A stretch of 64,000 nucleotides of DNA from a virus (IMGVR_UViG_3300025389_000021:1-64000); one strand, 5' to 3'. Counted from the stretch's first letter, positions 3,586 to 20,588 are shown. Notes: generated by a model not told the origin, from the sequence alone. Made by a program: numbers and translations.

Positions 3586-4362
3586 ATGGAAATTATAATT
3601 GCAGGATATGGGTTTGTTGGCAAGGCTGTTGGCCGTGCTATTGAGCATAGAAATATTGTACATATTGTTGATCCAAAAATTAACGATACCATTGTTTCAG
3701 ATTATAGATATGCAGAAGGTGTTATTATTTGTGTAGGAACGCCTAGTACAGAATTAGGTGATTGTGATGTCAGTCAAATTTATAGTGTGATGGACACAGT
3801 TCCCGAGACATTGCCAGTACTAATAAAATGTACAGTAAGGCCCGATTACCTAAATAGATTACTAGTAAACTATCCCAACCATAATATTTGTTACAGTCCA
3901 GAATTTTTACGGGCGGCAACAGCCGATGAGGATTTTGCTAATCAAACATATATGATATTAGGCGGTGAAGATCCCAACGATATTTGGGGAGAATTATTTA
4001 TGAGTTCTCTTAAAAACCTAAATACAATCGAATATTGCACACTGACAGAAGCAAGTATGTTGAAATATGCCACTAACTGTTTCCTAAGTGTCAAAGTAGC
4101 GTTCTTTAATCAAATTTATGACATGTGCCATCTAAACGGTGCTGACTATAATAAAGTTATTGAACTGTTAAAGATGGATGAGCGTATTGGGTCAAGCCAT
4201 ATGCAGGTTCCAGGGCCAGACGGAAGTCGTGGATTTGGGGGTGCTTGTTTCCCTAAAGATACAAATGCGTTTATACATTATGCCGATAAAATTGGATTGA
4301 TACACACACTGGTAGAATCGGCAATAAAATATAACAAGAAAGTAAGAAAAACATTGACATAG
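3586..4362 (+). CDS. Short UDP-glucose/GDP-mannose 6-dehydrogenase family protein
   Basis: GYGFVG Rossmann motif, CVGTP, YSPEFLR, K..N.FL..K..F.N and catalytic GFGGACFPKD. About 258 aa, lacking the C-terminal domain. Start reassigned to the ATG at 3586, just after the pol stop. Confidence 0.88.
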   Translation: MEIIIAGYGFVGKAVGRAIEHRNIVHIVDPKINDTIVSDYRYAEGVIICVGTPSTELGDCDVSQIYSVMDTVPETLPVLIKCTVRPDYLNRLLVNYPNHNICYSPEFLRAATADEDFANQTYMILGGEDPNDIWGELFMSSLKNLNTIEYCTLTEASMLKYATNCFLSVKVAFFNQIYDMCHLNGADYNKVIELLKMDERIGSSHMQVPGPDGSRGFGGACFPKDTNAFIHYADKIGLIHTLVESAIKYNKKVRKTLT

Positions 4363-4382
4363 TCATAAAAACCTATATAATA
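4354..4382 (+). promoter_or_regulatory. Sigma70-type promoter
   Basis: TTGACA-16 nt-TATAAT. Its AAACCTATATAATA is identical to the motif at 13877-13890. Confidence 0.65.
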
Positions 4383-4401
4383 AACAAACATGGAGAATCA
4401 T

Positions 4402-5133
4402 ATGAAAGACTTTTTACAAGACCTAGTAACACATACGCATAGCCTAGGCTTTTTGCCATTGGTTAAAGTTACTGCTACAGATAAAAGTGTAGCTATCGAA
4501 TCAAGAGCAGAAGATCATAGCGTTATCCTTAACGCTAAAACTAAAGAAGCTATCGAAGACTTTGAAGGTGTATTTGGTATGCCTAACTTAAACAAGTTGG
4601 ACATTCTATTAAAATGCCCAGAGTACAAAGAAAATTTCACTATTGAAGTAGTTAAACAGGAACGTGACGGAGAAGAAATTCCTACAGGTTTACATTTTTC
4701 TAACGGTGCTGGTGACTTTGAAAACGATTATCGTTTTATGAATTCTAGCATTATCAATGAAAAATTGAAAACTGTTAAATTCAAGGGTGCAACTTGGGAT
4801 GTTGAATTCAAGCCATCAATGGCCGCTATTCAAAGATTCAAGTTTCAAGCATCAGCACATACAGAAGATCCTGTATTCCAAATTTCAACAAAAGATAACA
4901 ATCTAGTGTTTAATTTTGGCGATGCTAATACCCATGCTGGAAGTTTTGTATTCCAAAGTGATATTGGTGGTAAATTGAAATCAACTTGGTGCTGGCCAGT
5001 AAATGCAATTCAAAGCATCTTAAATCTTCCCGGAGATGTTACTATGCGTATTGCAGATGCAGGTGCTCTACAAATTACTGTAGACAGCGGAATTGCTGAA
5101 TACGACTACATCCTTCCAGCACAAAGCAAATAA
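4402..5133 (+). CDS. Probable DNA polymerase sliding clamp (gp45-like)
   Basis: About 243 aa with a two-domain alpha/beta pattern ending 'ITVDSGIAEYDYILPA'. Near a PolB with a clamp-binding tail. GGAG SD precedes the ATG at 4402. Confidence 0.6.
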   Translation: MKDFLQDLVTHTHSLGFLPLVKVTATDKSVAIESRAEDHSVILNAKTKEAIEDFEGVFGMPNLNKLDILLKCPEYKENFTIEVVKQERDGEEIPTGLHFSNGAGDFENDYRFMNSSIINEKLKTVKFKGATWDVEFKPSMAAIQRFKFQASAHTEDPVFQISTKDNNLVFNFGDANTHAGSFVFQSDIGGKLKSTWCWPVNAIQSILNLPGDVTMRIADAGALQITVDSGIAEYDYILPAQSK

Positions 5134-5312
5134 TGGTCGAACTTCATAAACGTACCGTACTAAGAGCATTAAGTTATAGAATAGTAGCATTACTGATAAC
5201 TGCTGTCTGGACTGGTTTAAGCGATGCAGTTATAATACATGTTATCCTAACTGCGGTACATTACGTTATGGAACGAGCATGGTTAAAAATAAAATGGGGC
5301 AAAATTGAATAG
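5133..5312 (+). CDS. Small membrane protein, DUF2061-like (not in the ORF track)
   Basis: Hand translation: MVELHKRTVLRALSYRIVALLITAVWTGLSDAVIIHVILTAVHYVMERAWLKIKWGKIE. It has a TAATG overlap with the upstream gene and overlaps the downstream start. Confidence 0.65.
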   Translation: MVELHKRTVLRALSYRIVALLITAVWTGLSDAVIIHVILTAVHYVMERAWLKIKWGKIE

Positions 5313-6861
5313 AAATCTAACAGCAACGCAAAACGACTATGCGTACTTTCTGCCGGCAACGTCAGGATTTTATAGTACCTATATAGGTAAACAACGTCAC
5401 GGTAACTATGTAGACCCGGCTCGTATCCCCGCGAGCTTTGGTCCAATGGGCATTGAGGCTATGAATTATCTAGATCCCAATGCGGCATTTTATTATGACC
5501 ATTGTTTATATAGTGCAGGACATGCTAATTTAGATCTTAACAAACCAGATCCTAGCGAAGACATGTTCCGTAATCGAAATCGTGCAACTAGTTGGGTACT
5601 AGGTGATTCAGGCGGATTCCAAATTGGTAAAGGCAAGTGGGAAGGTGATTGGAAAGATCCTAACTGTCCAAAAGCAATGAAGAAGCGTACACAAGTATTG
5701 GCCTGGATGGATGCACTCATGGACTATGGTATGTGTCTTGATGTTCCGGCTTGGGTGGCTCGTAGTCCGGCAGGAGCCAAGGCTACAGGAATTAGTACCT
5801 ACGCTGAAGCTGTTCAGGCAACTTTTATCAATAATGATTATTTTATTAATAATCGTAACGGTAATTGTAAATTCCTTAATGTATTACAAGGTGAAAATCA
5901 CAAGGATGCTGAGGGTTGGTATCAGCACATGAAGAAATATTGTGATCCAAAACAATATCCTGGTCGGCATTTTAACGGTTGGGGCATGGGTGGACAGAAT
6001 ATGTGTGACATTCACTTGACCTTAAAACGTCTAGTAGCGTTACGCTTTGACGGGCTTCTTGAAAAAGGAGAACAAGACTGGATGCACTTCTTAGGCACCA
6101 GTAAATTAGAATGGGCATTAATCTTAACTGACATACAAAGGGCCGTAAGGAAATATCACAATGACCAATTTACCATATCTTTTGACTGCGCCTCACCGTT
6201 CCTTGCAACCGCAAACGGTCAAATCTACGTCCAAACAGAAATTACCGACAGAGAAAAATGGCTCTACCGCATGTTGCCGTCTCTTGACAACAAAAAATAC
6301 GCCCAAGATACTCGTCTCTTCCAAGACGTAGTAGTACAAGATAAACACTTTGCCAACTTTGAAACAAGTCCGTTAATGGATGGTGTCAAAGTTAACGAAA
6401 TTTGTATCTATGGCCCAAATGATGTTAACAAGATTGGCAAAGTAGGTAAGACGAGCTGGGATAGTTTCACTTATGCTATTATGATGGGGCATAATGTTTG
6501 GATGCATATCAATGCTGTACAAGAAGCTAATCGTCAATATGATGCCGGATTATGTCCTACAATGTTAGTACAAGAAAAATTTGATAGACTATATGCTAAA
6601 GATGTAATCGAAGCCATATTTGCTACAAGTGATCGCGGTACTGCCGATGCTATTGTTGATGAGTTTAGTCGTTTTTGGATGGCTATCCCGGGTACACGAG
6701 GCTATACTGGTAAACGAACAGTTAACGCAAGTACCAAGTTTTTCGAATTGTTTGACGAAGTAGAAGAAGATAGTGTACAATTAGATGAAGAACCAGACTT
6801 CGATGACGAAGTTTCCGATAAACTAGACGCTTTAGAGGCTAGTGTGCATGACGTTACCTGA
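5305..6861 (+). CDS. dpdA: tRNA-guanine-transglycosylase-fold DNA base-exchange enzyme (DpdA-like)
   Basis: TGT motifs DSGGFQ, LDVP, VLQG, GWGMGG, HFLG, SFD.ASP and a late HN. No TGT Zn-Cys cluster. Phage context with folE and queE. Subfamily not determined. Confidence 0.8.
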   Translation: MNRNLTATQNDYAYFLPATSGFYSTYIGKQRHGNYVDPARIPASFGPMGIEAMNYLDPNAAFYYDHCLYSAGHANLDLNKPDPSEDMFRNRNRATSWVLGDSGGFQIGKGKWEGDWKDPNCPKAMKKRTQVLAWMDALMDYGMCLDVPAWVARSPAGAKATGISTYAEAVQATFINNDYFINNRNGNCKFLNVLQGENHKDAEGWYQHMKKYCDPKQYPGRHFNGWGMGGQNMCDIHLTLKRLVALRFDGLLEKGEQDWMHFLGTSKLEWALILTDIQRAVRKYHNDQFTISFDCASPFLATANGQIYVQTEITDREKWLYRMLPSLDNKKYAQDTRLFQDVVVQDKHFANFETSPLMDGVKVNEICIYGPNDVNKIGKVGKTSWDSFTYAIMMGHNVWMHINAVQEANRQYDAGLCPTMLVQEKFDRLYAKDVIEAIFATSDRGTADAIVDEFSRFWMAIPGTRGYTGKRTVNASTKFFELFDEVEEDSVQLDEEPDFDDEVSDKLDALEASVHDVT

Positions 6862-7108
6862 TGAACGCTTTAGAAGTATTCAACGAACAGAAGAATTTTT
6901 ACAGGATCTAATGAATCCGCAAAAGACTCCACGTATTCCAAAAAGCATACGTGAACAAGCTCGTTGGTGTTTGCGACATTATCCTAGTTATCATAATTTG
7001 AAAGAATTAGAACGTGCGGCTCCAGAGGTTGTAACAGAACGAATGGAAGATGTACAGCGTATGATCAAGTACTGGGAAGAAGGGAAAAAGTTTACAAATG
7101 AAAACTAG
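6848..7108 (+). CDS. BPSL0761-like small protein
   Basis: MTLPDER...EEFLQDL...R..AR.CLRHYP pattern. Confidence 0.55.
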   Translation: MTLPDERFRSIQRTEEFLQDLMNPQKTPRIPKSIREQARWCLRHYPSYHNLKELERAAPEVVTERMEDVQRMIKYWEEGKKFTNEN

Positions 7109-7979
7109 TCTTGTAGTAGGAATGGGTATAGGCAATTTGTATGCCACTGTGCTGGATAAACTTGGACACGGTGTTATTACTGTTGACCAAGACTCTTCGA
7201 AAGGCGCAGATTTTATAAGTGTAGATGATGCCATTGCTAAATGTCATATGTTTGATACTGCACACGTTTGCACACCCAATTTTACACACGAAGACATTGC
7301 CCGCAAACTTGCACCGGTGACTAAAATAGTTTTTATTGAAAAACCCGGTGTTATTAATACCAAATCATGGATGAAAATGATTACGGATTTTCCGCAAACA
7401 CGTTTCATGATGGTTAAAAATAACATGTGGCGTGAGAACATTAGTGAATTAAAAGATCTAGCTACTAAAGCCAAAATAGTAAACATTGAATGGATTAGAA
7501 AGAATTGTATTCCTAGTCCAGGCAGTTGGTTTACAACACGCAAACTAGCGTTTGGCGGTGTTAGTCGTGATTTAATGCCACACCTTTTGAGTCTTTATAT
7601 TGCTATGAATCCAGCATGGCGTAAAGAACAAGTTAACGGCAACGCAACTATACAGAATTGGTTATTAGAAGACATTGAAAGTACAGAATACGGAGTGGTA
7701 AACTCCAACGGTACATATGATGTAGATGATCAATGTGATATTTCATTTGGCAATAAATGGAATTGTCGTGCTAACTGGCGTAGTATGACACACGAAAATA
7801 GTGCCATTGAATTTATAATGCAGGACAATAGTATAGAACGATTTGAATTAGGTTGGTGCCCCGAAGAAGCCTATTTCAATATGATTAAAAATGCTATAGA
7901 TAATATAGACAACTATCAGTTCTGGTTAGAACAATTTGATATAGATACATGGATACATGAAAGAATAGAGAATCTATGA
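7098..7979 (+). CDS. Gfo/Idh/MocA family NAD(P)-dependent oxidoreductase
   Basis: GMGIG, VCTPNFTH, FIEKP and GGVSRDLMPH motifs. Confidence 0.85.
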   Translation: MKTSLVVGMGIGNLYATVLDKLGHGVITVDQDSSKGADFISVDDAIAKCHMFDTAHVCTPNFTHEDIARKLAPVTKIVFIEKPGVINTKSWMKMITDFPQTRFMMVKNNMWRENISELKDLATKAKIVNIEWIRKNCIPSPGSWFTTRKLAFGGVSRDLMPHLLSLYIAMNPAWRKEQVNGNATIQNWLLEDIESTEYGVVNSNGTYDVDDQCDISFGNKWNCRANWRSMTHENSAIEFIMQDNSIERFELGWCPEEAYFNMIKNAIDNIDNYQFWLEQFDIDTWIHERIENL

Positions 7980-8881
7980 AGGTAAAGTGTTTACAAACAA
8001 CAGGCAAAGGCTATTTCGAAGAAGTTGATTACGAAATTGGACCTTGGGCACAGGATAGTATCTATGTTAAGGCTATAATGACTGGTGTATGTCGTAGCGA
8101 CATAGACATGATGATGGGCGACTTTGGTCCGCTACCCTTACACATGCAAGGACACGAAGGTATTGGACAAGTCATGTCTGTAGGTGCGGCATGTAATGAT
8201 GTAAAAGTAGGCGATTATGTTGCAACACGCGGTGAGCCTGCTTATGCTGACCAGTATACTGTACGTCAAGGAGAATATGTAAAGATTCCCGAAGCACATC
8301 CCCGTTATATTTTAGAACCAGTTGCTTGCGGTATTAATCTTATTGAACAGGCCAAAGAATATTTGCAGGATCGACAAGGCAGACACGAAAACAATCGTAT
8401 GCTTATTATTGGTAGTGGATTCCTTGCCTGGGTTGCCTATCACACCATGCGTCTAAATGGATATATCTTCCATGTAGATGTATTGGGTCACAGTAATAAA
8501 GAGCTTTGGGGAGATCGAATTCAGTCTAGTACTATCGAAAACTACGATGTGGTTATTGATCTTAGCGGTAATTATGAGCTAGGTACACAGATCAACCTAA
8601 ATAATAATGCAGTGATTATAGATGGAGTAGGAAAAGCAGTAAGCAAACAAGAAGCACAGGCTCAACTTTGGAAAGCTGTTACCACTGTCAAGCCTAGTCC
8701 CCGTAATCCTGAGTTTATCGATTGCATGCATATAGCCAAGTACTGGATTGAAAACGGCTATCTAGAGGTTGATAGTTTTTGGACTAGAGGTTATAATCGT
8801 AGTACAGAATGGCAACAAGCGTTTGCGGACGGCGTTAATCGTCCGAGTGGTTATAGTAGAGGTTATATTAAATGGGACTAA
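7976..8881 (+). CDS. Zn-dependent medium-chain alcohol dehydrogenase family protein
   Basis: GVCRSD, GHEGIG, VKVGDYV, LEP.AC and IIGSG Rossmann motifs. No structural-Zn Cys4 lobe. Confidence 0.85.
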   Translation: MKVKCLQTTGKGYFEEVDYEIGPWAQDSIYVKAIMTGVCRSDIDMMMGDFGPLPLHMQGHEGIGQVMSVGAACNDVKVGDYVATRGEPAYADQYTVRQGEYVKIPEAHPRYILEPVACGINLIEQAKEYLQDRQGRHENNRMLIIGSGFLAWVAYHTMRLNGYIFHVDVLGHSNKELWGDRIQSSTIENYDVVIDLSGNYELGTQINLNNNAVIIDGVGKAVSKQEAQAQLWKAVTTVKPSPRNPEFIDCMHIAKYWIENGYLEVDSFWTRGYNRSTEWQQAFADGVNRPSGYSRGYIKWD

Positions 8882-9411
8882 ACACTGAAGAACGACAAGG
8901 TGTCGTTTACTTTACAGGTTATGAAGTCGAACATACGATTTGTCATGGTATGTACACATTATTTGTAGTGGGCACACCGCCTGTAGAAGATATACTACGT
9001 ATTGCAGACGACAGTCAAGCATACTTAGACGAGTCTAAGCGTATCCGACATATCTACTTTGGTACTAGTCAGAGCTTTAACCCTAAAAGCATCACGCATG
9101 AAGAATATAAAGCATGGGATGATGTTATTATTCCATGTTTGAAGAAAGATTATTGGGTGACATTGGACTTTGATGTTAGTCACTCGGAAGGTGTACTTGA
9201 ATCTTGTTATAGTGAATATCCAAGATTCGTACCTATGATTAGTGTTAAACTACCCTACATTAATCAACATAACTATAACGCCACACTTAAACTGGATGAT
9301 CGTACCTGGGGTGCTACCAATCCAGGTGTGTGGACTCATCAACTACATGATCTAATGCGTATGGACAAATATACACATTGGGATCAATATACACAAGACA
9401 CACCAGCATGA
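8872..9411 (+). CDS. Hypothetical protein in the deazaguanine cluster
   Basis: 179 aa, overlapping both neighbours. Enzyme-like motifs GYEVEHT, TLFVVG, HIYFG and KLDD..WGATNPGVW.H. Confidence 0.7.
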   Translation: MGLNTEERQGVVYFTGYEVEHTICHGMYTLFVVGTPPVEDILRIADDSQAYLDESKRIRHIYFGTSQSFNPKSITHEEYKAWDDVIIPCLKKDYWVTLDFDVSHSEGVLESCYSEYPRFVPMISVKLPYINQHNYNATLKLDDRTWGATNPGVWTHQLHDLMRMDKYTHWDQYTQDTPA

Positions 9412-9806
9412 TAGAAAATGTATTACGCCAAGATTGGCGCCCAAACAAGATGATCTGGGTCACCTTCCAAAAAGAAGGCATCCATGCTTATCCAGCGGCC
9501 GCAACTGATCCAAACTTAGCAACAGGAGATGAATATGATGTATCGTTTTTGGCTACTCCTCATCGTCATATATTCCATTTTCGCGTTTGGCTTTCAGTTA
9601 CCCACAACGACCGTGATGTCGAATTCATCCAGTTCAAACGATGGTTGGAAAATTTATACAAAGACAGTATACTAAAACTAGATTATAAGAGTTGCGAGAT
9701 GATGTCAGACGATTTGTATGACATGATTTCACAAAGGTATCCAAGCCGTGAGGTTTGGATTGAGGTCTCCGAAGACGGAGAAAATGGTTCGTTTATTAAA
9801 TATTAA
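9408..9806 (+). CDS. QueD/PTPS-fold (T-fold) protein with LxxxHRHxF motif (DpdL-like)
   Basis: GIH.YP, LATPHRHIFHF, DRDVEFI, SCEM and VSEDGENG. It lacks the canonical QueD CxxxHGH. Start at the ATG at 9408 (ATGA overlap). Confidence 0.75.
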   Translation: MIENVLRQDWRPNKMIWVTFQKEGIHAYPAAATDPNLATGDEYDVSFLATPHRHIFHFRVWLSVTHNDRDVEFIQFKRWLENLYKDSILKLDYKSCEMMSDDLYDMISQRYPSREVWIEVSEDGENGSFIKY

Positions 9807-9817
9807 GGAAAGCTATA

Positions 9818-10078
9818 ATGGCTAAGAACTACAAGGACATCAACTATTTTGAAACTCGTCCGGATATTGTTAAAATCTTTGATGATCTAGAGGCATTCCA
9901 TGACTGGTGCCGTATGGAGGGGGCTCCATTTGATGAAGCTCATCTTTATAATAGAGAAAGCTGGCAGTGGCGTAACTTTGATAAGACACGCCGTCCTAAG
10001 AAGCCGTTTACAGGTGAACGTAAACCTTACCTAGGCAAAAATCCACGTCCTTATAACAATGAACGTATTTCTAATTGA
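9818..10078 (+). CDS. Hypothetical protein
   Basis: 86 aa with an AAGGA SD and a basic C-terminal tail. Confidence 0.7.
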   Translation: MAKNYKDINYFETRPDIVKIFDDLEAFHDWCRMEGAPFDEAHLYNRESWQWRNFDKTRRPKKPFTGERKPYLGKNPRPYNNERISN

Positions 10079-11156
10079 TCTAGAAGCTGTTGAGACAAGG
10101 TACACTGGCGAGTGGAAACGCCATGTACCTAATCTCTTACGAAAGGCAGGACACAATGTTCAAATTATATCTGGGCCTGAGGATATTCCTACAGCCACTA
10201 CTCCTGGTGCTTTTCTTAATTTTGGCGGCACCAATATATATAAGTCTCGACAAGTGGAACAAATGGGGCGCCTATTTTGCTCCGGATCAGTTAAACCTGG
10301 CGATCATTTCCTGTTTACCGATGCTTGGCATCCTGGCATCATAAACTTAAAGTACATGAGTGAACTACTGAACATTCCAGTAGTCACGCATGGCTTGTGG
10401 CATGCTGGTAGTTATGATCCTCAAGACTTTCTTGGACGCTTAGTTGGCAATAAGCCTTGGGTACGTCACGCAGAGAAGAGTTTCTTCCATGCATTTGATC
10501 ACAACTATTTTGCTACAGATTTTCATATCAAGATGTTTGTTACTAATCTATTAAATGATTATCCAAATGAAAATCCCTGGCTGGCGGATGACTTGAATGA
10601 TATTCTTGCAGGTGAAGATCCAAGATTTGTTCGCACTGGATGGCCAATGGAGTATATGGAAGATACATTGACCATGTATAAGAATATGCCCAAGCGTGAT
10701 CTTATTCTTTTCCCGCATCGCATCGCACCTGAGAAGCAGGTTGAGATTTTCAGAGACTTGGCTACACACTTACCGCAATATGAATTTGTAGTGTGTCAGG
10801 ATCAACAGCTAACAAAAAATGAATATCATAACTTGTTAGGCGAAGCAAAGATGGTGTTTAGTGCTAACTTACAAGAAACACTAGGCATTAGTTGCTATGA
10901 AGGTGCGGTAGTTGATGCTATTCCCATGGTTCCGGATAGGCTCAGTTACAGTGAAATGTATTATGACACATTCAAATATCCTAGCGTATGGACTAACGAT
11001 TATGATACATATACAGTATACAGACCAGATTTGTGTCGTAAAATAATAGAACATATGGATAATTATTCTACAAGAATACCTATGATCCGAAAACAAGCAA
11101 AGGATTTACATGAACGATTCTTCAGCGCCACAGCACTCCTTAGACGATTTACTTGA
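10059..11156 (+). CDS. GT-B (GT4-like) glycosyltransferase
   Basis: FPHRIAPEKQ, SANLQETLGISCYEG and P.VPDRLSY.EM, the nucleotide-sugar-binding C-domain signature. Confidence 0.8.
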   Translation: MNVFLIDLEAVETRYTGEWKRHVPNLLRKAGHNVQIISGPEDIPTATTPGAFLNFGGTNIYKSRQVEQMGRLFCSGSVKPGDHFLFTDAWHPGIINLKYMSELLNIPVVTHGLWHAGSYDPQDFLGRLVGNKPWVRHAEKSFFHAFDHNYFATDFHIKMFVTNLLNDYPNENPWLADDLNDILAGEDPRFVRTGWPMEYMEDTLTMYKNMPKRDLILFPHRIAPEKQVEIFRDLATHLPQYEFVVCQDQQLTKNEYHNLLGEAKMVFSANLQETLGISCYEGAVVDAIPMVPDRLSYSEMYYDTFKYPSVWTNDYDTYTVYRPDLCRKIIEHMDNYSTRIPMIRKQAKDLHERFFSATALLRRFT

Positions 11157-11577
11157 AAAAGTAAAACAGTACACATCGTCAACTTATGTTGTCAACAGTG
11201 ATACTGTTACTATTTCAAACAATGGTAATACCTCTGGTACCATATCATCTATTGATCTAAATACTATTGACAATATTACACTTGGCACAACCATACCTTC
11301 AAACTATTATTATACTGCACCTAGTACATTAGGAACCATAAGTATAGGAAGCGGATTAACTAGTGCTAGTATAGCAGGTCTTAATACTATAAACACTTCA
11401 CAATTTAATATACAGTTACCAGAAGAATGGGTAGATCGATTTCCCGAATGGGATCGCATAAAAGATATGTGTGAACAATATCCCGGATTAAAAATAGCAT
11501 TTGACAAATTCAAAACAACTTACCTATTAGTGAAAGGACACTATGATACTCCAGAAGATGAAAGACCGCGTCCTTAA
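11110..11577 (+). CDS. Hypothetical protein with Thr/Ser-rich N-terminus and helical C-terminus
   Basis: Low-complexity T/S/I tract followed by CEQYPGLKIAFDKFKTTY. Confidence 0.65.
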   Translation: MNDSSAPQHSLDDLLEKVKQYTSSTYVVNSDTVTISNNGNTSGTISSIDLNTIDNITLGTTIPSNYYYTAPSTLGTISIGSGLTSASIAGLNTINTSQFNIQLPEEWVDRFPEWDRIKDMCEQYPGLKIAFDKFKTTYLLVKGHYDTPEDERPRP

Positions 11578-12034
11578 TTGGCTTGAGCGACATGATCGCA
11601 AACGAATTATTATGGATCGTACCGAAAACGAACCATATCTAGAACGCTATTATGTATTGTTCAAAGAACGTGTCACATTTCCTTATAACGTATTCTTACA
11701 TAAATTCTGTAAAAGCGATCCAGATGATGTACATGATCATCCTTGGAATTACTTTACTATCATTCTTGCCGGCGGTTACTATGAGTGGATTGCTCAGTTC
11801 AACGAAGATGGTACAAAGAACTGCGAAGTAAGAGTATGGCGTGGTCCCGGTAGTTTCCGTTTTGGTAACACACATACCTTTCACCGTATTGAATTAAAAG
11901 AGGGCGTTACTCCTTGGACATTGTTCTTTGTAGGTAAGCGTCAACGTGAGTGGGGATTTATTGTAGAAAATAAATGGATCCACTTTGAAAAATATTTAAG
12001 TGATAGAAAGAATGGCCTACTTCCCAACAACTAA
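11543..12034 (+). CDS. Cupin-fold (cysteine-dioxygenase-like) protein
   Basis: LHKF..SD...HDHPW...IL.GGY.E...FHRIEL...WTLF metal-binding cupin pattern. Confidence 0.7.
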   Translation: MILQKMKDRVLNWLERHDRKRIIMDRTENEPYLERYYVLFKERVTFPYNVFLHKFCKSDPDDVHDHPWNYFTIILAGGYYEWIAQFNEDGTKNCEVRVWRGPGSFRFGNTHTFHRIELKEGVTPWTLFFVGKRQREWGFIVENKWIHFEKYLSDRKNGLLPNN

Positions 12035-12401
12035 TACAACTGCTACTTCAGTATATACTAATGGTACCAGCACAGCTACTATACCAAATGGTGGTTATTT
12101 AACGTCGACTGGAACTAACACTATTTGGACCACTAATACAAGCGTTCCAAATAGCGAAGTGATGAGGATTAATCAAACCAATCCTGCCACTATAGAAGTT
12201 AAAGGTAACATGGTTATTAACGGAGTTGATTTAGAAGAACGGTTAAAGACAATCGAAACAGTATTGCAAATTCCAGAAAGAGATGTTATACTAGAACGTA
12301 AACATCCTAAACTTAAAAAGATGTACGATGACTACATAAAGGCTTTGGGCAAATACAGAACATTTGAAGCAATTAAAGGAGATGAAGATGGAACTACATG
12401 A
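12012..12401 (+). CDS. Hypothetical protein with Thr-rich N-terminus and helical C-terminus
   Basis: T-rich tract followed by LERKHPKLKKMYDDY. Same layout as 11110..11577. Confidence 0.65.
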   Translation: MAYFPTTNTTATSVYTNGTSTATIPNGGYLTSTGTNTIWTTNTSVPNSEVMRINQTNPATIEVKGNMVINGVDLEERLKTIETVLQIPERDVILERKHPKLKKMYDDYIKALGKYRTFEAIKGDEDGTT

Positions 12402-12618
12402 ATCAGTTAGAGATACTTATAAAGAACAAATTATCAAAGAGCATGACGGATATCGATTGAAACTCAAGAAGCATGAAGTACTCAATCCTAAAGGATTATT
12501 AAGCATTGACATGGTTCAAGAAAGTTTGAAAGACGGGGAAGTTGTTGACTCGCAAGTATATAATTTCTTTATGACTAAAGAAGAAGTAGCAACACTGGCA
12601 TCCGCATTGATAGCATGA
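12388..12618 (+). CDS. Hypothetical protein
   Basis: GGAG SD. Overlaps its neighbours. Confidence 0.6.
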   Translation: MELHESVRDTYKEQIIKEHDGYRLKLKKHEVLNPKGLLSIDMVQESLKDGEVVDSQVYNFFMTKEEVATLASALIA

Positions 12619-13103
12619 AGAAGATCTATTACACTTGGACTCAAGTAGAGGGTGCTTGTTTAGATCTATCCAGACAAATAATACAGGATAAATGGTATCC
12701 TGACTATATTGTTGGTTTGAATAGGGGAGGCCTTGTACCGGCTAATTTAATTAGTCAATACTTAGACATTCCTATGGCTACACTTATGGTCAGTCTCAGA
12801 GATGGCGGCATTAAAGTTAGCGACACAGGTATGGCGGAAGATGCCTACAACGGTCAAAATATCCTAGTTGTAGATGACATCAACGATCAAGGTTCTACGA
12901 TTGCTTGGATTAAAAAAGATTGGCAAACTAGTTGTTTGCCAGGCGAAACACAATGGCAAACTACATGGGGTCATAATGTACGTTTTGCAGTATTAACAAA
13001 TAACCTATCCAGCAAGGAAGATGTTGATTATACCTATTGGGAAGTCAACAAAGCCGAAGAAGATTGCTGGCTAGTTTATCCTTGGGAGGAATTTTGGAAA
13101 TGA
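12615..13103 (+). CDS. Type I (xanthine/guanine-like) phosphoribosyltransferase
   Basis: IVGLNRGGLVPA, PRPP-binding ILVVDDINDQGST and C-terminal WLVYPWE. Confidence 0.88.
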   Translation: MKKIYYTWTQVEGACLDLSRQIIQDKWYPDYIVGLNRGGLVPANLISQYLDIPMATLMVSLRDGGIKVSDTGMAEDAYNGQNILVVDDINDQGSTIAWIKKDWQTSCLPGETQWQTTWGHNVRFAVLTNNLSSKEDVDYTYWEVNKAEEDCWLVYPWEEFWK

Positions 13104-13291
13104 CATCAGCAGTAATTAAACTTATTATCGGACTTGCATTTATTTTAATTGCAATTTCCGTTGGCCCAATCATTGGTATATGGTCATTGAATACACTATT
13201 TCCAGTATTACATATTGAGTTAACATGGCAAACTTGGTTAGCTTTTAATATTTTATTTGGTAGTAGTATTGCTACTAGGATAAAAGGATGA
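13100..13291 (+). CDS. Small membrane protein
   Basis: Two hydrophobic segments. ATGA overlap with the PRTase. Confidence 0.6.
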   Translation: MTSAVIKLIIGLAFILIAISVGPIIGIWSLNTLFPVLHIELTWQTWLAFNILFGSSIATRIKG

Positions 13292-13458
13292 ACCCCGATA
13301 TTCAAGCTATCAAAGAAAAAATTGATAAAGTTAATAGCGATATTTTGAAATTATCTGAAAGTGGAACTAGTCTTCAAGGTATTCAAGCATTAAACAATTA
13401 CAAAGATTATTTAGAAGACGAACTACGCAATTTAGAAAAAAATGCAAAAAAAACATAG
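13288..13458 (+). CDS. Small coiled-coil protein (not in the ORF track)
   Basis: Hand translation: MNPDIQAIKEKIDKVNSDILKLSESGTSLQGIQALNNYKDYLEDELRNLEKNAKKT. ATGA overlap. Confidence 0.55.
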   Translation: MNPDIQAIKEKIDKVNSDILKLSESGTSLQGIQALNNYKDYLEDELRNLEKNAKKT

Positions 13459-13690
13459 TAGTACAGGTATTATTGCCTCTAAAAAAGAAGGCCGTGTCCA
13501 TATGGTAAGGATACCATGGAAGGGACAAAATAACTATTGGTGGAATGAAGCCTGTGCTGATGTGATAGAAGTATTTGGATTGCCTGGAGATCGATTCACT
13601 AGTCATCCTACCGAAAACAACATGGACTTTTATTTCAAATCAAAAAAGGATGCAGACTTATGCAAAATACTTCTATCAGAGAGAATTTAG
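13442..13690 (+). CDS. Hypothetical protein
   Basis: 82 aa. The start could instead be 13502. Confidence 0.55.
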   Translation: MQKKHSSTGIIASKKEGRVHMVRIPWKGQNNYWWNEACADVIEVFGLPGDRFTSHPTENNMDFYFKSKKDADLCKILLSERI

Positions 13691-13878
13691 ATTTTTATTC
13701 AGTACTAGTACTAGGAATTGCTTTAGTAGTATTTGCTATCTATTGGAATTATACACATCCGCATGTTGTTGTAAAATATGATTGTTCAATATCTGAAATA
13801 AGTCCAGATTATCCTATACCCGTTAAAGAAGCCTGCCGTAAACTTCGAGCAGAAAATAACTTGCAATCGTCTAAATAA
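13660..13878 (+). CDS. Small membrane-anchored protein
   Basis: N-terminal TM segment followed by YDCS.SEISPDYP..VKEAC. Confidence 0.55.
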   Translation: MQNTSIRENLDFYSVLVLGIALVVFAIYWNYTHPHVVVKYDCSISEISPDYPIPVKEACRKLRAENNLQSSK

Positions 13879-13890
13879 ACCTATATAATA
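13861..13890 (+). promoter_or_regulatory. Sigma70-type promoter for the folE block
   Basis: TTGCAA-17 nt-TATAAT. Shares AAACCTATATAATA with 4369-4382. Confidence 0.6.
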
Positions 13891-13906
13891 GTACAAAGGA
13901 ACAAGT

Positions 13907-14671
13907 ATGACTGAATCGAGAATCTATCAAAATTTAATTATAGGCGCTGACATGCAGGAAGACGATAACACAGAATATCAAGAAGCCAATCTAGCAGATG
14001 TTTTGCGTTTCAAAATGAAACGTGACAATAAACGTTTTTGGGCTGGCGATAACATCAGCGAATATGTTACAGAAGAAAACAAAGAACAATTAATCACAGA
14101 AGCAACACAGGCATTTGAAAAAGTATTAGATACTTTGCTGATTGATCGTGAAACAGATCCTAATAGCAAGGGCACAGCACGTCGTCTTGCTAAAATGTAC
14201 TTTAATGAAATAATGGCAGGACGTTATGAACCAGCACCGGATGCAACAGCATTTCCTAACGACAGCGAAGACAGATACGAAGGTATGTTGGTGGTACGTA
14301 GTGAGCTCCGCTCTATGTGCAGTCATCATCATCAGCCCGTTACTGGTGTCGCTTACATTGGCATCATCGCCGCACAAAAACTTATTGGTTTGTCTAAGTA
14401 CACTCGTATTGCTCAGTGGTGTGCTCGTCGCGGCACTCTCCAGGAAGAGTTGTGTAACGATATTGCTAGGGAAATACAAAAAGCCACAGGAGCCACAGAC
14501 TTAGGTGTATATGTGCAAGCCATACATGGTTGTTGTGAGAACCGTGGCATTATGGCACACTCTAGTCTTACACAAACAACTGTACTCAAAGGTGCGTTCA
14601 AAGACGACCACGGTACAAAGAAAGAGTTTTTTGACAATATTAAAATGCAACAGGAGTATGCTTCAAAATGA
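13907..14671 (+). CDS. folE: GTP cyclohydrolase I
   Basis: TARRLAKMY, SMCSHHHQP, IGLSKYTRI, LQEEL and HGCCENRG. Confidence 0.95.
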   Translation: MTESRIYQNLIIGADMQEDDNTEYQEANLADVLRFKMKRDNKRFWAGDNISEYVTEENKEQLITEATQAFEKVLDTLLIDRETDPNSKGTARRLAKMYFNEIMAGRYEPAPDATAFPNDSEDRYEGMLVVRSELRSMCSHHHQPVTGVAYIGIIAAQKLIGLSKYTRIAQWCARRGTLQEELCNDIAREIQKATGATDLGVYVQAIHGCCENRGIMAHSSLTQTTVLKGAFKDDHGTKKEFFDNIKMQQEYASK

Positions 14672-15024
14672 TGTACCAAACGCCAGCTGAAGGCATTATG
14701 AAAACAAACGACTGGGGAGACAGTAAAGTCTACCGAGTTACTTGCAAGTGTGGTGCGTCCGATCACGATCATCACATGTGGGTAGAAGCCGATGATCACG
14801 AAGTTAGTGTTACTATCTATACAACTGTAAAAAGTAATTGGTGGAGTAAAACTCGCTGGCATGCTATTTGGCAATTACTAACTAAAGGCTATATTGATAC
14901 AGAATCCACTGTAATTATGAATCGTCAGCAGGCATTTAACTATGCCCAAACATTGTTAAGTGCTGTAGACGACGTAGAACAATTTAGGAAAGAAAAAAAT
15001 GACAAACGCCAAGCAAGTATTTGA
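14668..15024 (+). CDS. Hypothetical protein, possible metal-binding CxC...H
   Basis: YRVTCKCGASDHDHH. Lies between folE and queE. Confidence 0.6.
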   Translation: MMYQTPAEGIMKTNDWGDSKVYRVTCKCGASDHDHHMWVEADDHEVSVTIYTTVKSNWWSKTRWHAIWQLLTKGYIDTESTVIMNRQQAFNYAQTLLSAVDDVEQFRKEKNDKRQASI

Positions 15025-15229
15025 CGAATTATTTTATCGTATGAAGACTACAGACCTAAATAAGTTTGAGATTAAACGTGAAGTAGGCAATAACTGGTTG
15101 CCACAAGGTACAGTTCCGTTTGATTTATCTGCTAAAAATGGTATTGCTACATTTGAAGTGTGGGCAGAAAGTATCCAAGACGCAGAAAATCAAGTAAGTC
15201 AATTTTTAGAAAGAGATGAAGATGAGTAA
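14999..15229 (+). CDS. Hypothetical protein
   Basis: 76 aa, overlapping both neighbours. Confidence 0.55.
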   Translation: MTNAKQVFDELFYRMKTTDLNKFEIKREVGNNWLPQGTVPFDLSAKNGIATFEVWAESIQDAENQVSQFLERDEDE

Positions 15230-16079
15230 AATTAAGATAGCAGAAATTTTTTATAGCCTACAAGGTGAAGGACGCTATGCAGGAGTGCCTAGCGTTTTCT
15301 TGCGTACATTTGGATGCAACTTTCAATGCCGTGGATTTGCCATGCCTAAAGGACAAATTACAACAGAACCAGATGAAATCGCAGAAGTAGTGCATCTCTA
15401 TAATACATACGAGGATTTACCATTAGCAGAAACTGGATGCGATAGTTATGCTTCGTGGCATCCTGGTTTTAAGCATCTAAGTCCAATGATGACCAATGAA
15501 GAAGTTGTTGCAAAGATGGAAAGTATTATTCCTAATAATGCTTGGATGCAAGAAGATGGACATGATATACATTTGGTTATTACAGGCGGAGAGCCACTGC
15601 TAGGTTGGCAGAAAAATTATCCAGATATTATTGCGGCTTGTCAGAAAAAAGGTCTAACTAATATTACATTTGAAACTAATGGCACTCAACGTCTAAGCGA
15701 TGAATTTTATACATGGCTCGATAACACAGGCACAGTACACTCAATGTTTACATTTAGCATAAGTCCTAAATTATCTTGCAGTGGTGAAACATGGGCAAGT
15801 GCTATTCAATCTGAAATTGTAAAAGAATATGAAGGCGTCGGACACTGCTATTTGAAATTTGTAGTAGCTACTGAGGACGATGTTGAAGAAGTTGATCGTG
15901 CTGTAAAAGCCTATCAAGACGTAGGATTTACTGGGCCTACATATTTGATGCCAGTAGGCGGAACAGAAAATACTTACAATCTAAACACTAAACAAGTAGC
16001 TGAACTTGCAATGAAACGTGGTTACCGTTATAGTCCAAGATTACAAGTAGATATTTGGCGCAATGCTTGGGGAACCTAA
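15216..16079 (+). CDS. queE: 7-carboxy-7-deazaguanine synthase (radical SAM)
   Basis: EIFYSLQGEG..G.PSVFLRTFGCNFQC...CDS, VITGGEP, ETNG, SISPKL and RLQVDIW. Confidence 0.92.
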   Translation: MKMSKIKIAEIFYSLQGEGRYAGVPSVFLRTFGCNFQCRGFAMPKGQITTEPDEIAEVVHLYNTYEDLPLAETGCDSYASWHPGFKHLSPMMTNEEVVAKMESIIPNNAWMQEDGHDIHLVITGGEPLLGWQKNYPDIIAACQKKGLTNITFETNGTQRLSDEFYTWLDNTGTVHSMFTFSISPKLSCSGETWASAIQSEIVKEYEGVGHCYLKFVVATEDDVEEVDRAVKAYQDVGFTGPTYLMPVGGTENTYNLNTKQVAELAMKRGYRYSPRLQVDIWRNAWGT

Positions 16080-16223: not shown

Positions 16224-16650
16224 AAATTTAATTAAAAAATGGTTTGGTATCGATAAGTTAGAAGATAACTTAAAAGTTCTCAAAGAAATGGAAGCCAAAG
16301 CAGTAGCGGCTACTGCTGAAGCTCAAACAGCCGAACAAGAAGCAAAGATGGATCCAAAAACTCGAGCTACTGCTCGAGGAGAACCATATGTAGCAGTTTT
16401 GGATACCCATGTGAACAAAGAAAATGTCCGTAATGGGTTTTTTGAACTTGACTGGAATGACCTGTTTATAGTACAATTAAAACAAGCTGGATACGGATTT
16501 GATGGTGATCCAGATGAAGAGATTGTGGATCGGTGGTTTAGAGATTTGGCAGGCAACATGCTAGCAGAAGCAGGCCAACAACCTAATCGCACAATTGGTG
16601 GTTATATTAATGTAAACAGATTAGGAAACGGCAAAGCCGAAGTTGAATGA
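16216..16650 (+). CDS. Hypothetical protein
   Basis: Probable start MIKNLIKK. Contains GFFELDWN..F...L..AGY...EEIVDRWF. Confidence 0.65.
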   Translation: MIKNLIKKWFGIDKLEDNLKVLKEMEAKAVAATAEAQTAEQEAKMDPKTRATARGEPYVAVLDTHVNKENVRNGFFELDWNDLFIVQLKQAGYGFDGDPDEEIVDRWFRDLAGNMLAEAGQQPNRTIGGYINVNRLGNGKAEVE

Positions 16651-20518: not shown

Positions 20519-20534
20519 TTCGGTTTAGTAGTAT

Positions 20535-20575
20535 TTGACACCTCCTTCGGGAGGTGTTATAATATATACATACAG
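20535..20575 (+). promoter_or_regulatory. Consensus sigma70 promoter whose spacer is a C(UUCG)G hairpin
   Basis: TTGACA-17 nt-TATAAT. ACACCTCC-TTCG-GGAGGTGT spans 20538-20557. Confidence 0.7.
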
Positions 20576-20588
20576 TAAAGGAGCATTC

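Follow-up and report, generated by a model that had tools for sequence, protein, structure and literature searches.

The window analysed here is a 64,000-nucleotide stretch of viral DNA (IMGVR_UViG_3300025389_000021:1-64000); its source record comprises 73 kb, or ~20% of one genome, and absences within the record are bounded by this share. Every gene that the original prediction named for positions 3586-16079 was found there in a run of closely packed or overlapping genes, all on the + strand. The run follows a Family B DNA polymerase gene (PolB; 915..3584, +; Pfam DNA_pol_B, E = 9e-38) and includes a gene for a clamp-like protein (phrog_12062; 4390..5133, +; PHROG 12062, E = 4e-36), homologues of which are labelled as sliding clamp in Phosso and as structural protein in PA5oct. 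In all relatives the cluster begins directly 3' of the polymerase gene and lies within the replication module, with PolB/clamp on one side and RNase H on the other. Among the spanning loci of the first locus set, the polymerase was seen in 28 of 29 and the clamp-like gene in all 29, always just ahead of the gene for a DpdA-like protein.

Two precursor enzymes are encoded in the run, GTP cyclohydrolase I (FolE; 13907..14671, +; Pfam, E = 2.6e-38; PHROG 2197, E = 4.7e-45) and a QueE-like radical SAM enzyme (7-carboxy-7-deazaguanine synthase; 15216..16079, +). The latter matched PHROG 2076 (E = 4e-59), Pfam Radical_SAM (E = 1.6e-5) and NCBIfam QueE models with E values down to 2.4e-16, all below cut-off. 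A 6-oxopurine (xanthine/guanine-type) phosphoribosyltransferase (PRTase; 12615..13103, +; Pfam Pribosyltran, E = 2e-15) had purine/xanthine-guanine PRTases as best PDB matches (1vdm, E = 5e-11) and an NCBIfam XPRT match below cut-off (E = 3.8e-13); it also occurs in the distant metagenomic locus L181, and the PA5oct match is 27% identical. The cupin-type protein, a frequent accessory (11543..12034, +), matched PHROG 4786 'cysteine dioxygenase' (E = 2.4e-35) and gave no Pfam or PDB sequence match. Profile or structure searches confirmed the labels originally given to FolE, QueE, the PRTase and the cupin, as well as to the two oxidoreductases described below.

Scans of the ORFs in the run against Pfam, PHROG and NCBIfam returned no QueC, QueF or ArcS family, and neither QueC nor PTPS had a Pfam match anywhere in the 73-kb record (~20% of the genome). 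The predicted absence of QueC, QueF and ArcS holds for this incomplete record only: in five fuller relatives, QueC was missing in four, and a canonical QueD/PTPS was encoded elsewhere in all five. The proposal of a 7-deazaguanine DNA-modification module of the 7-carboxy-7-deazaguanine (CDG) branch without QueC was supported.

The DpdA-like transglycosylase (518 aa; 5305..6861, +) showed no match in Pfam, NCBIfam or PDB sequence searches. Its AlphaFold model (pLDDT 87.5) retrieved only tRNA-guanine transglycosylases (TGTs) from the PDB with Foldseek (21/21 matches at E ≤ 1e-3), and the proposed DpdA-like identity is confirmed at the level of the modelled fold only. The motifs DSGGFQ and FDC are both found, with D101 (DSGGFQ) and D294 (FDC) invariant across 23 relatives, and the final ~50 residues form a disordered acidic tail. 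A BLAST chain leads from the window protein to a 400-aa protein of L181 (E = 1e-22), from there to a 424-aa protein of ACP17 (E = 1e-9), and finally to an annotated TGT of BUDD (E = 2e-54).

The T-fold protein at 9378..9806 (+) had been labelled QueD-fold. This label was corrected, as the protein carries L-x3-H-R-H-x-F (LATPHRHIF) and not the QueD signature CxxxHGH. LxxxHRHxF is the DpdL signature (PMC10516641), from which the protein is predicted to be a 7-carboxy-7-deazaguanine decarboxylase of the DpdL type. With the gene reassigned to DpdL, the module falls in the DpdA/DpdL (dDG) class described by Cui et al. 2023. Homology to DpdL starts only at residue 24-26, which places the true start probably at an internal ATG; identities to the homologues from ACP17, PA5oct, Phosso and phiST (gp040) were 54%, 56%, 66% and 32%, respectively. 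The conserved protein o179 (8872..9411, +), with homologues in PA5oct-like phages and ACP17, had no match in Pfam, PHROGs, NCBIfam, a PDB profile search or the ESM Atlas, and by co-occurrence counts among the core partners of DpdL and the glycosyltransferase (GT).

The GT (365 aa; 10059..11156, +) was modelled with a pLDDT of 94.8. The top Foldseek PDB matches of the model were the GT4/GT-B enzymes glycogen synthase, BshA, BGluT and PglA, and the best BFVD match was a GT1-domain protein of ACP17 (TM 0.86/0.92); the predicted identity as a GT-B enzyme, here GT4-like, is confirmed by the fold only. The window protein itself had no Pfam match, whereas 34/55 relatives matched Pfam Glycos_transf_1, and the family profile matched PDB glycosyltransferases. 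The EX7E motif is kept, with E281 invariant and R221, K226 and E273 nearly invariant. The GT resembles small-molecule GT4 enzymes, a pterin glucosyltransferase included, as much as anything else, and the T4 alpha/beta-glucosyltransferases were absent from the top 50 structural matches (PDB, BFVD).

Three further enzymes may act on sugars. The protein proposed to be UGDH-like is a truncated UDP-glucose/GDP-mannose dehydrogenase-like protein (258 aa; 3586..4362, +; Pfam UDPG_MGDP_dh, E = 3.4e-24; UDPG_MGDP_dh_N, E = 2.1e-9; PHROG 9148, E = 8.4e-47) aligning to residues 81-302 of the 446-aa UGDH chain 4a7p. The C-terminal UDP-binding domain is missing, whereas the NAD-binding and central domains are retained, and with them the catalytic Cys motif. 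A Gfo/Idh/MocA-type NAD(P) oxidoreductase (7098..7979, +; Pfam GFO_IDH_MocA, E = 2.6e-6, N-domain only), with weak NCBIfam matches to sugar and inositol dehydrogenases, is followed by a medium-chain Zn-dependent dehydrogenase/reductase (Zn-ADH/MDR; 7976..8881, +; ADH_N, E = 3.2e-10; PHROG 2640), and the two genes always occur as a pair. In six related loci, an SDR NDP-sugar epimerase/dehydratase (Pfam Epimerase, E = 1e-43) is encoded directly 3' of the GT. The missing UDP-binding domain and the optional occurrence of the redox and UGDH-like genes count against the sugar-bearing base proposed below.

Co-occurrence was evaluated in 85 unique metagenomic loci spanning the DpdA-like gene to QueE. 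Core partners were the GT (84/85), DpdL (84/85) and o179 (81/85), followed by FolE (76/85), the PRTase (68/85) and the cupin (57/85); these high counts are due in part to shared descent, as most of the loci represent one related clade. In the reverse test with GT-centred loci having at least 6 kb of upstream sequence, the DpdA-like gene was present in 52/53, and DpdL and o179 in 53/53 each. Of the co-occurrence with dpdA initially anticipated for all sugar-related genes, that of the GT was borne out, whereas the UGDH-like gene (24/85) and the Gfo/ADH pair (18/85) are optional accessories. The GT and o179 belong to the deazaguanine module, as shown by association only. L087, the only spanning locus to lack both GT and DpdL, has a QueC-like match instead, and in Vibrio phage 2.275.O, QueC, QueF and Gat-QueC are present and GT and DpdL are missing (25.6-kb region examined).

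In six cultured phage groups (PA5oct-like phages, Phosso, ACP17, BUDD, X1 and BCSR5), the GT gene is a direct neighbour of genes for DpdL, DpdA or QueE or at most about 3 kb away from them. It adjoins a DpdA-type gene in PA5oct, ACP17, BUDD and the metagenomic locus L181, and DpdL, near FolE and QueE, in Phosso; in X1 and BCSR5 the distance to DpdL is 1.5-3 kb.

In the pathway that we propose from established family roles, FolE, QueE and a QueD encoded at another genomic site would convert GTP to CDG. The DpdL-type protein would process CDG, with a predicted decarboxylation to 7-deazaguanine, and the DpdA-like enzyme would then, once the phage DNA has been replicated, swap its guanine for the deazapurine base. 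The PRTase would most likely return the released guanine to GMP, thereby feeding FolE, or may alternatively ribosylate the deazapurine base. We infer that the GT would move a sugar from an NDP-sugar onto the deazaguanine-type base, probably once this base is in DNA, to give a sugar-bearing deazapurine. The UGDH-like, Gfo/Idh/MocA and Zn-ADH enzymes in the window, and the SDR enzyme in relatives, may modify the sugar or its donor, each lineage in its own way.

Since the GT constantly accompanies the guanine-swapping genes, the phage may make a sugar-bearing deazapurine in its DNA, which, if true, would be a base not described before. The best explanation of the data, to which we tentatively assign somewhat less than an even chance as a whole, is that a jumbo phage related to PA5oct owns a DNA-modification module in which a CDG-derived base is placed in DNA by the DpdA-like enzyme and glycosylated by the GT. 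A glycosylated deazaguanine in phage DNA is by itself plausible, if short of probable. At C7, 7-deazaguanine offers a GT no hydroxyl, amino or carboxyl group to act on, so a further step may be needed, e.g., by o179.

An unlikely but serious alternative is that the module yields plain dDG or dCDG in the manner of Cellulophaga phage phiST. The GT and the sugar enzymes would then serve a different target (another base in DNA, a protein of phage or host, or a glycan of the cell envelope) and owe their location to descent. The gene set of phiST comprises FolE, QueD, QueE, DpdL and a DpdA3-type gene but no GT, and its DNA carries plain dDG at 302,000 per 10^6 nucleotides (PMC10516641). This alternative also accommodates the lack of an obvious acceptor group in dDG, the DpdL homologues in 12/28 phage records for which tblastn (E ≤ 1e-3) detected no GT, including the five Cellulophaga records with phiST among them, and the weaker GT homologues in Xanthomonas/Erwinia phages without a DpdL match (5/22 records). 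Location by descent is, however, at odds with the GT staying near DpdA, DpdL or QueE in PA5oct, ACP17, BUDD, Phosso and L181, the DpdA-type proteins of which can barely or not be aligned with each other, and with the joint loss of GT and DpdL where QueC occurs. As to another base, the scanned part of the window contained ThyX only and no C or U hydroxymethylase. Finally, dpdA and dpdL of ACP17 yielded no dDG in E. coli (PMC10516641), which speaks against plain dDG formation.

The substrate of the GT could instead be a small molecule at a step before DNA, such as a pterin, a deazapurine intermediate, or the free base or nucleotide that the PRTase produces; the sugar would then serve as a temporary handle or belong to a pool of modified nucleotides and would not decorate DNA after replication. 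This is rather improbable, although the structural neighbours include tetrahydrobiopterin glucosyltransferases (5zer, 9v0l), BshA and MshA, and the cluster encodes the pterin-pathway enzymes FolE and a PTPS-like T-fold protein. Pathways for deazapurine antibiotics are known to include PRTases that ribosylate preQ0 or CDG, and the purine PRTase is conserved as far as L181. The BGluT match, however, is equalled or exceeded in score by many other GT4 enzymes, every locus examined has QueE and a TGT-fold enzyme, pointing to a deazapurine for nucleic acid, and Cui et al. 2023 conclude that DpdA inserts every known phage 7-deazaguanine post-replicatively (PMC10516641). Very improbable is a cluster that makes queuosine-type tRNA precursors or represents an auxiliary metabolic island without modifying phage DNA: the TGT fold is common to tRNA enzymes, but in all relatives the cluster is part of the replication module, the scans given above showed no QueC or QueF, without which preQ1 for tRNA cannot be made, the DNA of the cultured relative PA5oct is modified at G (excerpt of PMC12191111), and the DpdL-type phages assayed carry dDG in their DNA (PMC10516641).

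The proposed glycosylated CDG-derived base was compared with known systems. Glucosyl-hmC of T4 is alike in concept only, a GT-B enzyme placing the sugar of an NDP-sugar on a non-canonical base after replication. The T4 acceptor differs, as the sugar goes onto the hydroxyl of a hydroxymethylated pyrimidine that is made before replication; the T4 enzymes lie outside the top 50 structural matches of the window GT, and the scanned part of the window showed no hydroxymethylase. BGluT (UDP-glucose:tetrahydrobiopterin alpha-glucosyltransferase) shares the GT4/GT-B fold (E about 1e-7) and uses an acceptor that stems from the FolE/PTPS pathway, but is only 11-13% identical to the window GT and does not outscore glycogen synthase or BshA; to our knowledge, it does not co-occur with QueE or a TGT-fold enzyme. 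The queuosine mannosyltransferase is likewise a GT4-type enzyme. Mannosyl- and galactosyl-queuosine of vertebrate tRNA are 7-deazaguanine derivatives with a sugar in nucleic acid (excerpt of PMC8654956), though in RNA rather than DNA and with the sugar on the queuosine cyclopentenediol, which the window cluster cannot make as it has no QueC, QueF, QueA or QueG.

The phiST cluster shares with the window FolE, QueE, a DpdL with LxxxHRHxF, a very divergent TGT-fold transglycosylase, the lack of QueC and a position beside DNA polymerase genes. It differs in lacking the GT4 gene, o179 and the PRTase, all present in the window cluster; its DpdA3 (259 aa) has no BLAST similarity to the 518-aa window protein, and the DpdL proteins are the most distant of those compared above. 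The main text of the study describing it does not contain 'glycosyl' (Cui et al. 2023, NAR, PMC10516641; main text only). PA5oct (Wroclawvirus), a Pseudomonas jumbo phage, has the same order of PolB, clamp-like, DpdA-like, GT, DpdL, PRTase-like match, QueE and RNase H, with 36% (DpdA-like), 40% (GT) and 56% (DpdL) identity to the window proteins; its cluster differs in having no UGDH-like, Gfo/ADH or cupin genes and in an o179 homologue ~27 kb away. According to the excerpted preprint text (PMC12191111), the resistance of PA5oct DNA to five restriction enzymes follows a pattern indicative of modified G, and nucleases sensing modified DNA target this phage DNA; the deazaguanine gene list in that excerpt names QueE and a PTPS-like gene only. 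The module of the window is of the known DpdA/DpdL (dDG-type) kind, joined by a conserved GT not previously described.

The + strand genes between a family B DNA polymerase (PolB, 915-3584) and an RNase H (16647-17660) form a run in which neighbouring genes abut or overlap by 4-47 bases, and they encode a module of the known DpdA/DpdL kind of 7-deazaguanine DNA modification. Profile searches identified, all on the + strand, a UGDH-like protein (3586-4362), a Gfo/Idh/MocA oxidoreductase (Gfo, 7098-7979), a Zn-ADH/MDR protein (ADH, 7976-8881), a cupin-type protein whose PHROG family is annotated as cysteine dioxygenase (11543-12034), a purine PRTase (12615-13103), FolE (13907-14671) and a QueE-like radical SAM enzyme (15216-16079). 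FolE matched PF01227 with 131.7 bits (cut-off 27); the QueE-like protein gave a full-length match to PHROG 2076 ("QueE-like", E 4e-59) and matched five NCBIfam QueE models at E 2e-16 to 3e-11, each below its own cut-off. Two small + strand ORFs inside the cluster (11110-11577 and 12000-12401) have Ser/Thr/Asn-rich, low-complexity N-terminal halves and no family match, and were conserved in 17/29 and 16/29 loci, respectively. As the 73-kb record, whose first 64 kb make up the window, was rated approximately 20% complete (CheckV), it represents a fragment of a jumbo phage. Among cultured phages, the closest relatives of the cluster proteins came from the PA5oct group (Pseudomonas jumbo phages, Wroclawvirus), Sinorhizobium phage Phosso and Vibrio phage 2.275.O, and more distant ones from Acidovorax phage ACP17 and Xanthomonas phage BUDD; a megablast search with the 12.6-kb region gave no nucleotide match among cultured phages.

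Elsewhere in the window, a single 5229-aa ORF (41055-56744, -) is flanked by ORFs of 1213 aa (56744-60385, -) and 885 aa (38393-41050, -); these giant ORFs, typical of jumbo phages, presumably encode structural proteins. At 19418-21773 (+) lies a MoxR-VWA type pair, in which an AAA/MoxR-like ATPase precedes a DUF2201 metallopeptidase/VWA-like protein (Pfam E 3e-41), and a flavin-dependent thymidylate synthase, ThyX, is encoded at 23279-23959 (+; Pfam Thy1 E 1.2e-44). The part of the window that was scanned showed no gene of the pyrimidine hydroxymethylase type. Five consecutive ORFs of 203-298 aa without Pfam match (23956-27833, -) occupy its lowest-GC stretch (31-33%).

The T-fold protein (9378-9806, +) had been described as QueD-fold in the original prediction. 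The T-fold gene is indeed present, and its product carries LATPHRHIF at ORF residue 58, where QueD has CxxxHGH, with Leu replacing the catalytic Cys and Arg replacing Gly. The change from CxxxHGH to LxxxHRHxF defines DpdL, the predicted decarboxylase of 7-carboxy-7-deazaguanine (CDG) (PMC10516641), and the protein was therefore identified as DpdL rather than QueD. In tblastn comparisons it was 54% identical to its homologue in ACP17 (E 1e-35) and 32% identical to gp040 of the Cellulophaga phage phiST (E 1e-7). The motif was common to most homologues checked; in PA5oct and Aeromonas phage Ahp1, HFH replaces HRH. The DpdL proteins of phages carrying a glycosyltransferase (GT) were 43-66% identical to the window protein, versus 32% for the phiST enzyme, the only DpdL tied to a measured 2'-deoxy-7-deazaguanine (dDG) product (PMC10516641); thus, the product of DpdL in GT carriers may differ from dDG.

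The absence of QueC, also part of the original prediction, was borne out in so far as neither a QueC Pfam match nor a QueD match (PF01242) was found in the 73-kb record, which is weak evidence because the record covers only a fifth of the genome. We also searched five fuller relatives, namely two IMG/VR records (99% and 100% complete), PA5oct, Phosso and ACP17. All five encode a canonical QueD/PTPS elsewhere in the genome, and QueC was absent from four, with one weak match in the fifth. This content corresponds to the gene pattern published for DpdL phages, in which DpdA, FolE, QueE and QueD are present and QueC is absent (PMC10516641).

Neither the 518-aa DpdA-like protein (5305-6861, +) nor the 365-aa GT (10059-11156, +) gave a useful sequence match in Pfam, PHROGs, NCBIfam or PDB, and both were therefore folded by structure prediction. 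For the DpdA-like protein, the Pfam TGT family PF01702 matched neither the protein nor any other part of the 73-kb record, and its family profile matched no TGT chain in PDB by sequence. The model, calculated from an alignment of 23 IMG/VR relatives (31-77% identity), reached a pLDDT of 87.5, and all 21 Foldseek matches in PDB at E ≤ 1e-3 were tRNA-guanine transglycosylases of bacterial, human or archaeal origin (target TM approximately 0.45-0.53). D101 (in DSGGFQ) and D294 (in FDC), which we take to be conserved functional residues of TGT, were invariant across the 23 relatives and also kept in PA5oct, Vibrio phage 2.275.O and Phosso. The TGT fold originally assigned to this protein was thereby confirmed. 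A complex prediction of the DpdA-like protein (residues 1-465) with the GT, run without controls, gave a score of 0.00, which speaks neither for nor against binding.

The GT model, built from 55 diverse relatives (28-54% identity) drawn from 1102 clusters at E ≤ 1e-3, had a pLDDT of 94.8 and a pTM of 0.92. It gave 290 PDB matches at E ≤ 1e-3, of which the best 50 were all glycosyltransferases or glycan/sugar-phosphate synthases; the matches were of the GT-B/GT4 type and included glycogen synthase, BshA, tetrahydrobiopterin glucosyltransferase and PglA. The family profile matched PDB glycosyltransferases by sequence as well (best 8xsg, E 3.5e-4), and 34 of the 55 relatives, the window protein not among them, matched Pfam Glycos_transf_1 (best E 1.3e-8). 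Among the 55 relatives, E281 was invariant and E273, R221 and K226 were nearly so, giving an EX7E motif with an Arg/Lys pair, which we assign to the donor-binding C-terminal domain of GT-B/GT4 enzymes. The earlier GT-B call was thus correct. Neither the α- nor the β-glucosyltransferase of T4 was among the 50 best matches from PDB or BFVD. FolE, a PTPS-like protein, a BGluT-like GT and reductases could also be read as a pterin glucoside pathway; this reading was ranked low, since every locus examined held QueE and a TGT-fold enzyme and the BGluT match was unspecific.

IMG/VR loci were collected around DpdA-like genes and around GT genes, and a further set of DpdA-like loci was sorted by resemblance to the protein of the Vibrio phage in order to bring in more distant ones; 100 loci spanned the region from the DpdA-like gene to QueE, 85 of them unique. 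A GT of any type and DpdL were each present in 84/85 unique spanning loci, o179 (a conserved protein, 8872-9411, +) in 81, FolE in 76, PRTase in 68 and a cupin-type protein in 57, counts that overstate independent observations because most loci belong to one broad clade (PolB 46-92% identical to that of the window). In the reverse direction, GT-centred loci with at least 6 kb of upstream sequence contained the DpdA-like gene in 52/53 cases and DpdL and o179 in 53/53 each; with at least 1.5 kb upstream, DpdL was found in 68/71. The clade abounds in metagenomes, with matches to at least 599 IMG/VR stretches, and at least 8000 candidate proteins scored significant (8000/8000). When a distant GT relative was placed first in the query alignment, L180, L181 and L185 were the only new lineages reached, and the DpdA-like protein of PA5oct or the Vibrio phage alone as query retrieved no related loci from IMG/VR.

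A single spanning locus, L087, lacked both GT and DpdL, and it carried a QueC-like match instead. Vibrio phage 2.275.O has QueC, QueF, a Gat-QueC-type gene and a YhhQ-type transporter gene beside its DpdA-like gene, and no GT, DpdL or o179 in the 25.6-kb region examined. Judged by these two cases, GT, DpdL and o179 act as a single module, to which a QueC branch is the alternative. L087 also lacks o179, has a myo-inositol-1-phosphate-synthase-like protein directly after the DpdA-like protein (11741-13072 and neighbours), holds several unique ORFs and may encode a pathway to a different deazaguanine derivative.

The association with dpdA originally proposed for the GT together with the sugar-activating and redox genes applied to the GT (84/85) and not to Gfo (18/85), ADH (18/85) or the UGDH-like gene (24/85). 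With these counts, Gfo, ADH and UGDH were rejected as a pathway core. Gfo and ADH always occurred together, between the DpdA-like gene and o179, and the UGDH-like gene was found at more than one position. The label UGDH holds for the NAD-binding N-terminal domain, the central domain and the catalytic Cys motif GGxCFPKD; the protein aligns to residues 81-302 of a 446-aa UGDH and ends at the equivalent of approximately residue 302-308, so that the C-terminal UDP-binding domain is absent. With the labels of the T-fold and UGDH-like proteins corrected, the observation behind the original prediction is real. Searches with o179 gave no useful match in Pfam, PHROGs, NCBIfam or PDB, and an ESM Atlas search returned a best score of 0.78 and no named family.

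SDR epimerase-like matches were present in 16/85 loci. In six loci (L127, L132, L090, L105, L088 and L138), the gene directly downstream of the GT encodes an SDR NDP-sugar epimerase/dehydratase (Pfam matches to Epimerase, E 1e-43, and GDP_Man_Dehyd, E 2e-36); in four of them it follows a divergent GT variant of the 436-aa type. This variant occurred on two backgrounds, with DpdA-like proteins approximately 38% identical to that of the window and, in L132, 61% identical. At least one gene of the UGDH-like, Gfo or SDR type was found in 46/85 loci, a count that includes weak and possibly spurious SDR matches of 19-26% identity. If the donor sugar varies by lineage, exchangeable sugar-modifying genes beside a conserved GT would be expected. 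Other inserts in related clusters encode members of the class-III aminotransferase, IMPDH/GMP reductase and isocitrate-lyase/PEP-mutase families (L083:12164-13396; L230:9905-11011; L094:16747-17955).

The same combination recurred in cultured phages. PA5oct has the order PolB, clamp-like, DpdA-like, GT, DpdL, PRTase-like match, QueE and RNase H; the T4-like, 156-kb ACP17 encodes QueD, FolE, an o179 homologue, a 424-aa DpdA-type protein, GT, DpdL and QueE; and BUDD encodes FolE, GT, an annotated queuine tRNA-ribosyltransferase, DpdL and QueE. In Phosso, PolB, clamp, DpdL, GT, FolE and QueE are grouped and the DpdA-like gene lies 172 kb away, in X1 and BCSR5 the GT and DpdL genes are 1.5-3 kb apart, and the metagenomic lineage L181 contains FolE, PRTase, PolB, GT and a 400-aa DpdA-like protein. 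The DpdA-type proteins of these lineages are joined by a weak BLAST chain, which runs from the window protein to the 400-aa protein of L181 (E 1e-22), on to the 424-aa protein of ACP17 (E 1e-9) and from there to the annotated TGT of BUDD (E 2e-54), and which does not reach gp042 (DpdA3) of phiST; an hhalign comparison of the DpdA-like profile with the BUDD TGT was uninformative (probability 4%). Since only this chain connects them, the repeated adjacency of the GT is unlikely to be simple synteny by descent. As to the polymerase neighbourhood, a homing-endonuclease gene interrupts the DNA polymerase gene of PA5oct (L001 5608-10834), and the window polymerase is a single 889-aa ORF; Phosso (L085, L003) has two PolB/clamp-like neighbourhoods, of which the one with the DpdA-like gene adjoins primase and helicase genes.

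A DpdL homologue without a GT match was found in 12 of 28 phage records (tblastn, E ≤ 1e-3), among them Rhizobium RHph_I1_18, Vibrio Bakedbeans, Vibrio D479, Aeromonas Ahp1_CNU-2021, Synechococcus BUCT-ZZ01, Chryseobacterium MA9V-3 and five Cellulophaga records. The DpdL neighbourhoods of RHph_I1_18, Ahp1 and phiST contained no annotated GT, with many genes there annotated merely as hypothetical. The DNA of phiST contains plain dDG at 302,000 per 10^6 nucleotides (PMC10516641, Table 1), so the GT is not needed for dDG. Expression of ACP17 dpdA and dpdL in E. coli yielded no dDG, and other enzymes may be needed (PMC10516641). What is new is a GT4 glycosyltransferase as constant as DpdL itself in an abundant jumbo-phage clade and in several distant cultured phages, accompanied by o179, the PRTase and variable sugar-tailoring genes.

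Judged by the functions of their families, FolE would convert GTP to H2NTP, a QueD encoded elsewhere would form CPH4 and QueE would yield CDG. DpdL would then act on CDG, the published prediction being decarboxylation to 7-deazaguanine, and the TGT-fold enzyme would swap the base into DNA after replication. We further propose that the PRTase could return the excised guanine to GMP or else ribosylate the deazapurine, that the GT would add a sugar within the pathway and that o179 might catalyze a further step. This scheme is weakest at the acceptor atom, because 7-deazaguanine offers only C-H at position 7; with no heteroatom at C7, the sugar linkage might need new chemistry. Candidate linkages are a C-glycoside or attachment to a group that would be installed by o179, or by DpdL acting as something other than a simple decarboxylase.

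That the module modifies G in DNA with a deazapurine is highly probable, and the GT is likely, with somewhat less confidence, to belong to this DNA-modification pathway. A sugar on the final DNA base is a tentative proposal. Slightly more tentative still is the full reading, in which the jumbo-phage clade including PA5oct, Phosso, ACP17 and BUDD might replace guanine with a glycosylated 7-deazapurine whose sugar varies by lineage through swappable tailoring genes; with the same reserve, these could be the short UGDH-like gene, the Gfo/Idh/MocA and Zn-ADH pair and the SDR linked to the divergent GT.

Eight 7-deazaguanine bases have so far been described in phage DNA, all sugar-free (PMC10516641), and the word "glycosyl" is absent from the main text of that article (Cui et al. 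2023). The phage DNA bases described as sugar-bearing in the sections of PMC12191111 used here are on C or T, i.e. pyrimidines; the same sections state that PA5oct DNA is modified at G, do not identify the base and do not mention the GT. Sugar-bearing 7-deazaguanines are known, according to the part of PMC8654956 drawn on, only from vertebrate tRNA (manQ and galQ). We found no report of a glycosylated deazaguanine in phage DNA in the main texts of open-access articles.

That several distant phage groups share a GT locked into their DpdA/DpdL module suggests a purine hypermodification not described before, which might explain both why ACP17 dpdA and dpdL failed to yield dDG in E. coli and why G is modified in PA5oct, a therapeutic-candidate phage. 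A sugar-bearing base would bear on phage-host defence (restriction, END and GmrSD-type nucleases) and on sequencing artefacts, and its pathway would be a source of DNA-modifying enzymes. If the proposal is true, the base would rank as the first sugar-bearing purine analogue known from DNA. In T-even phages, the sugar on hmC varies between glucose and arabinose, and a sugar that varies by lineage on a 7-deazapurine would be the parallel to this variation.
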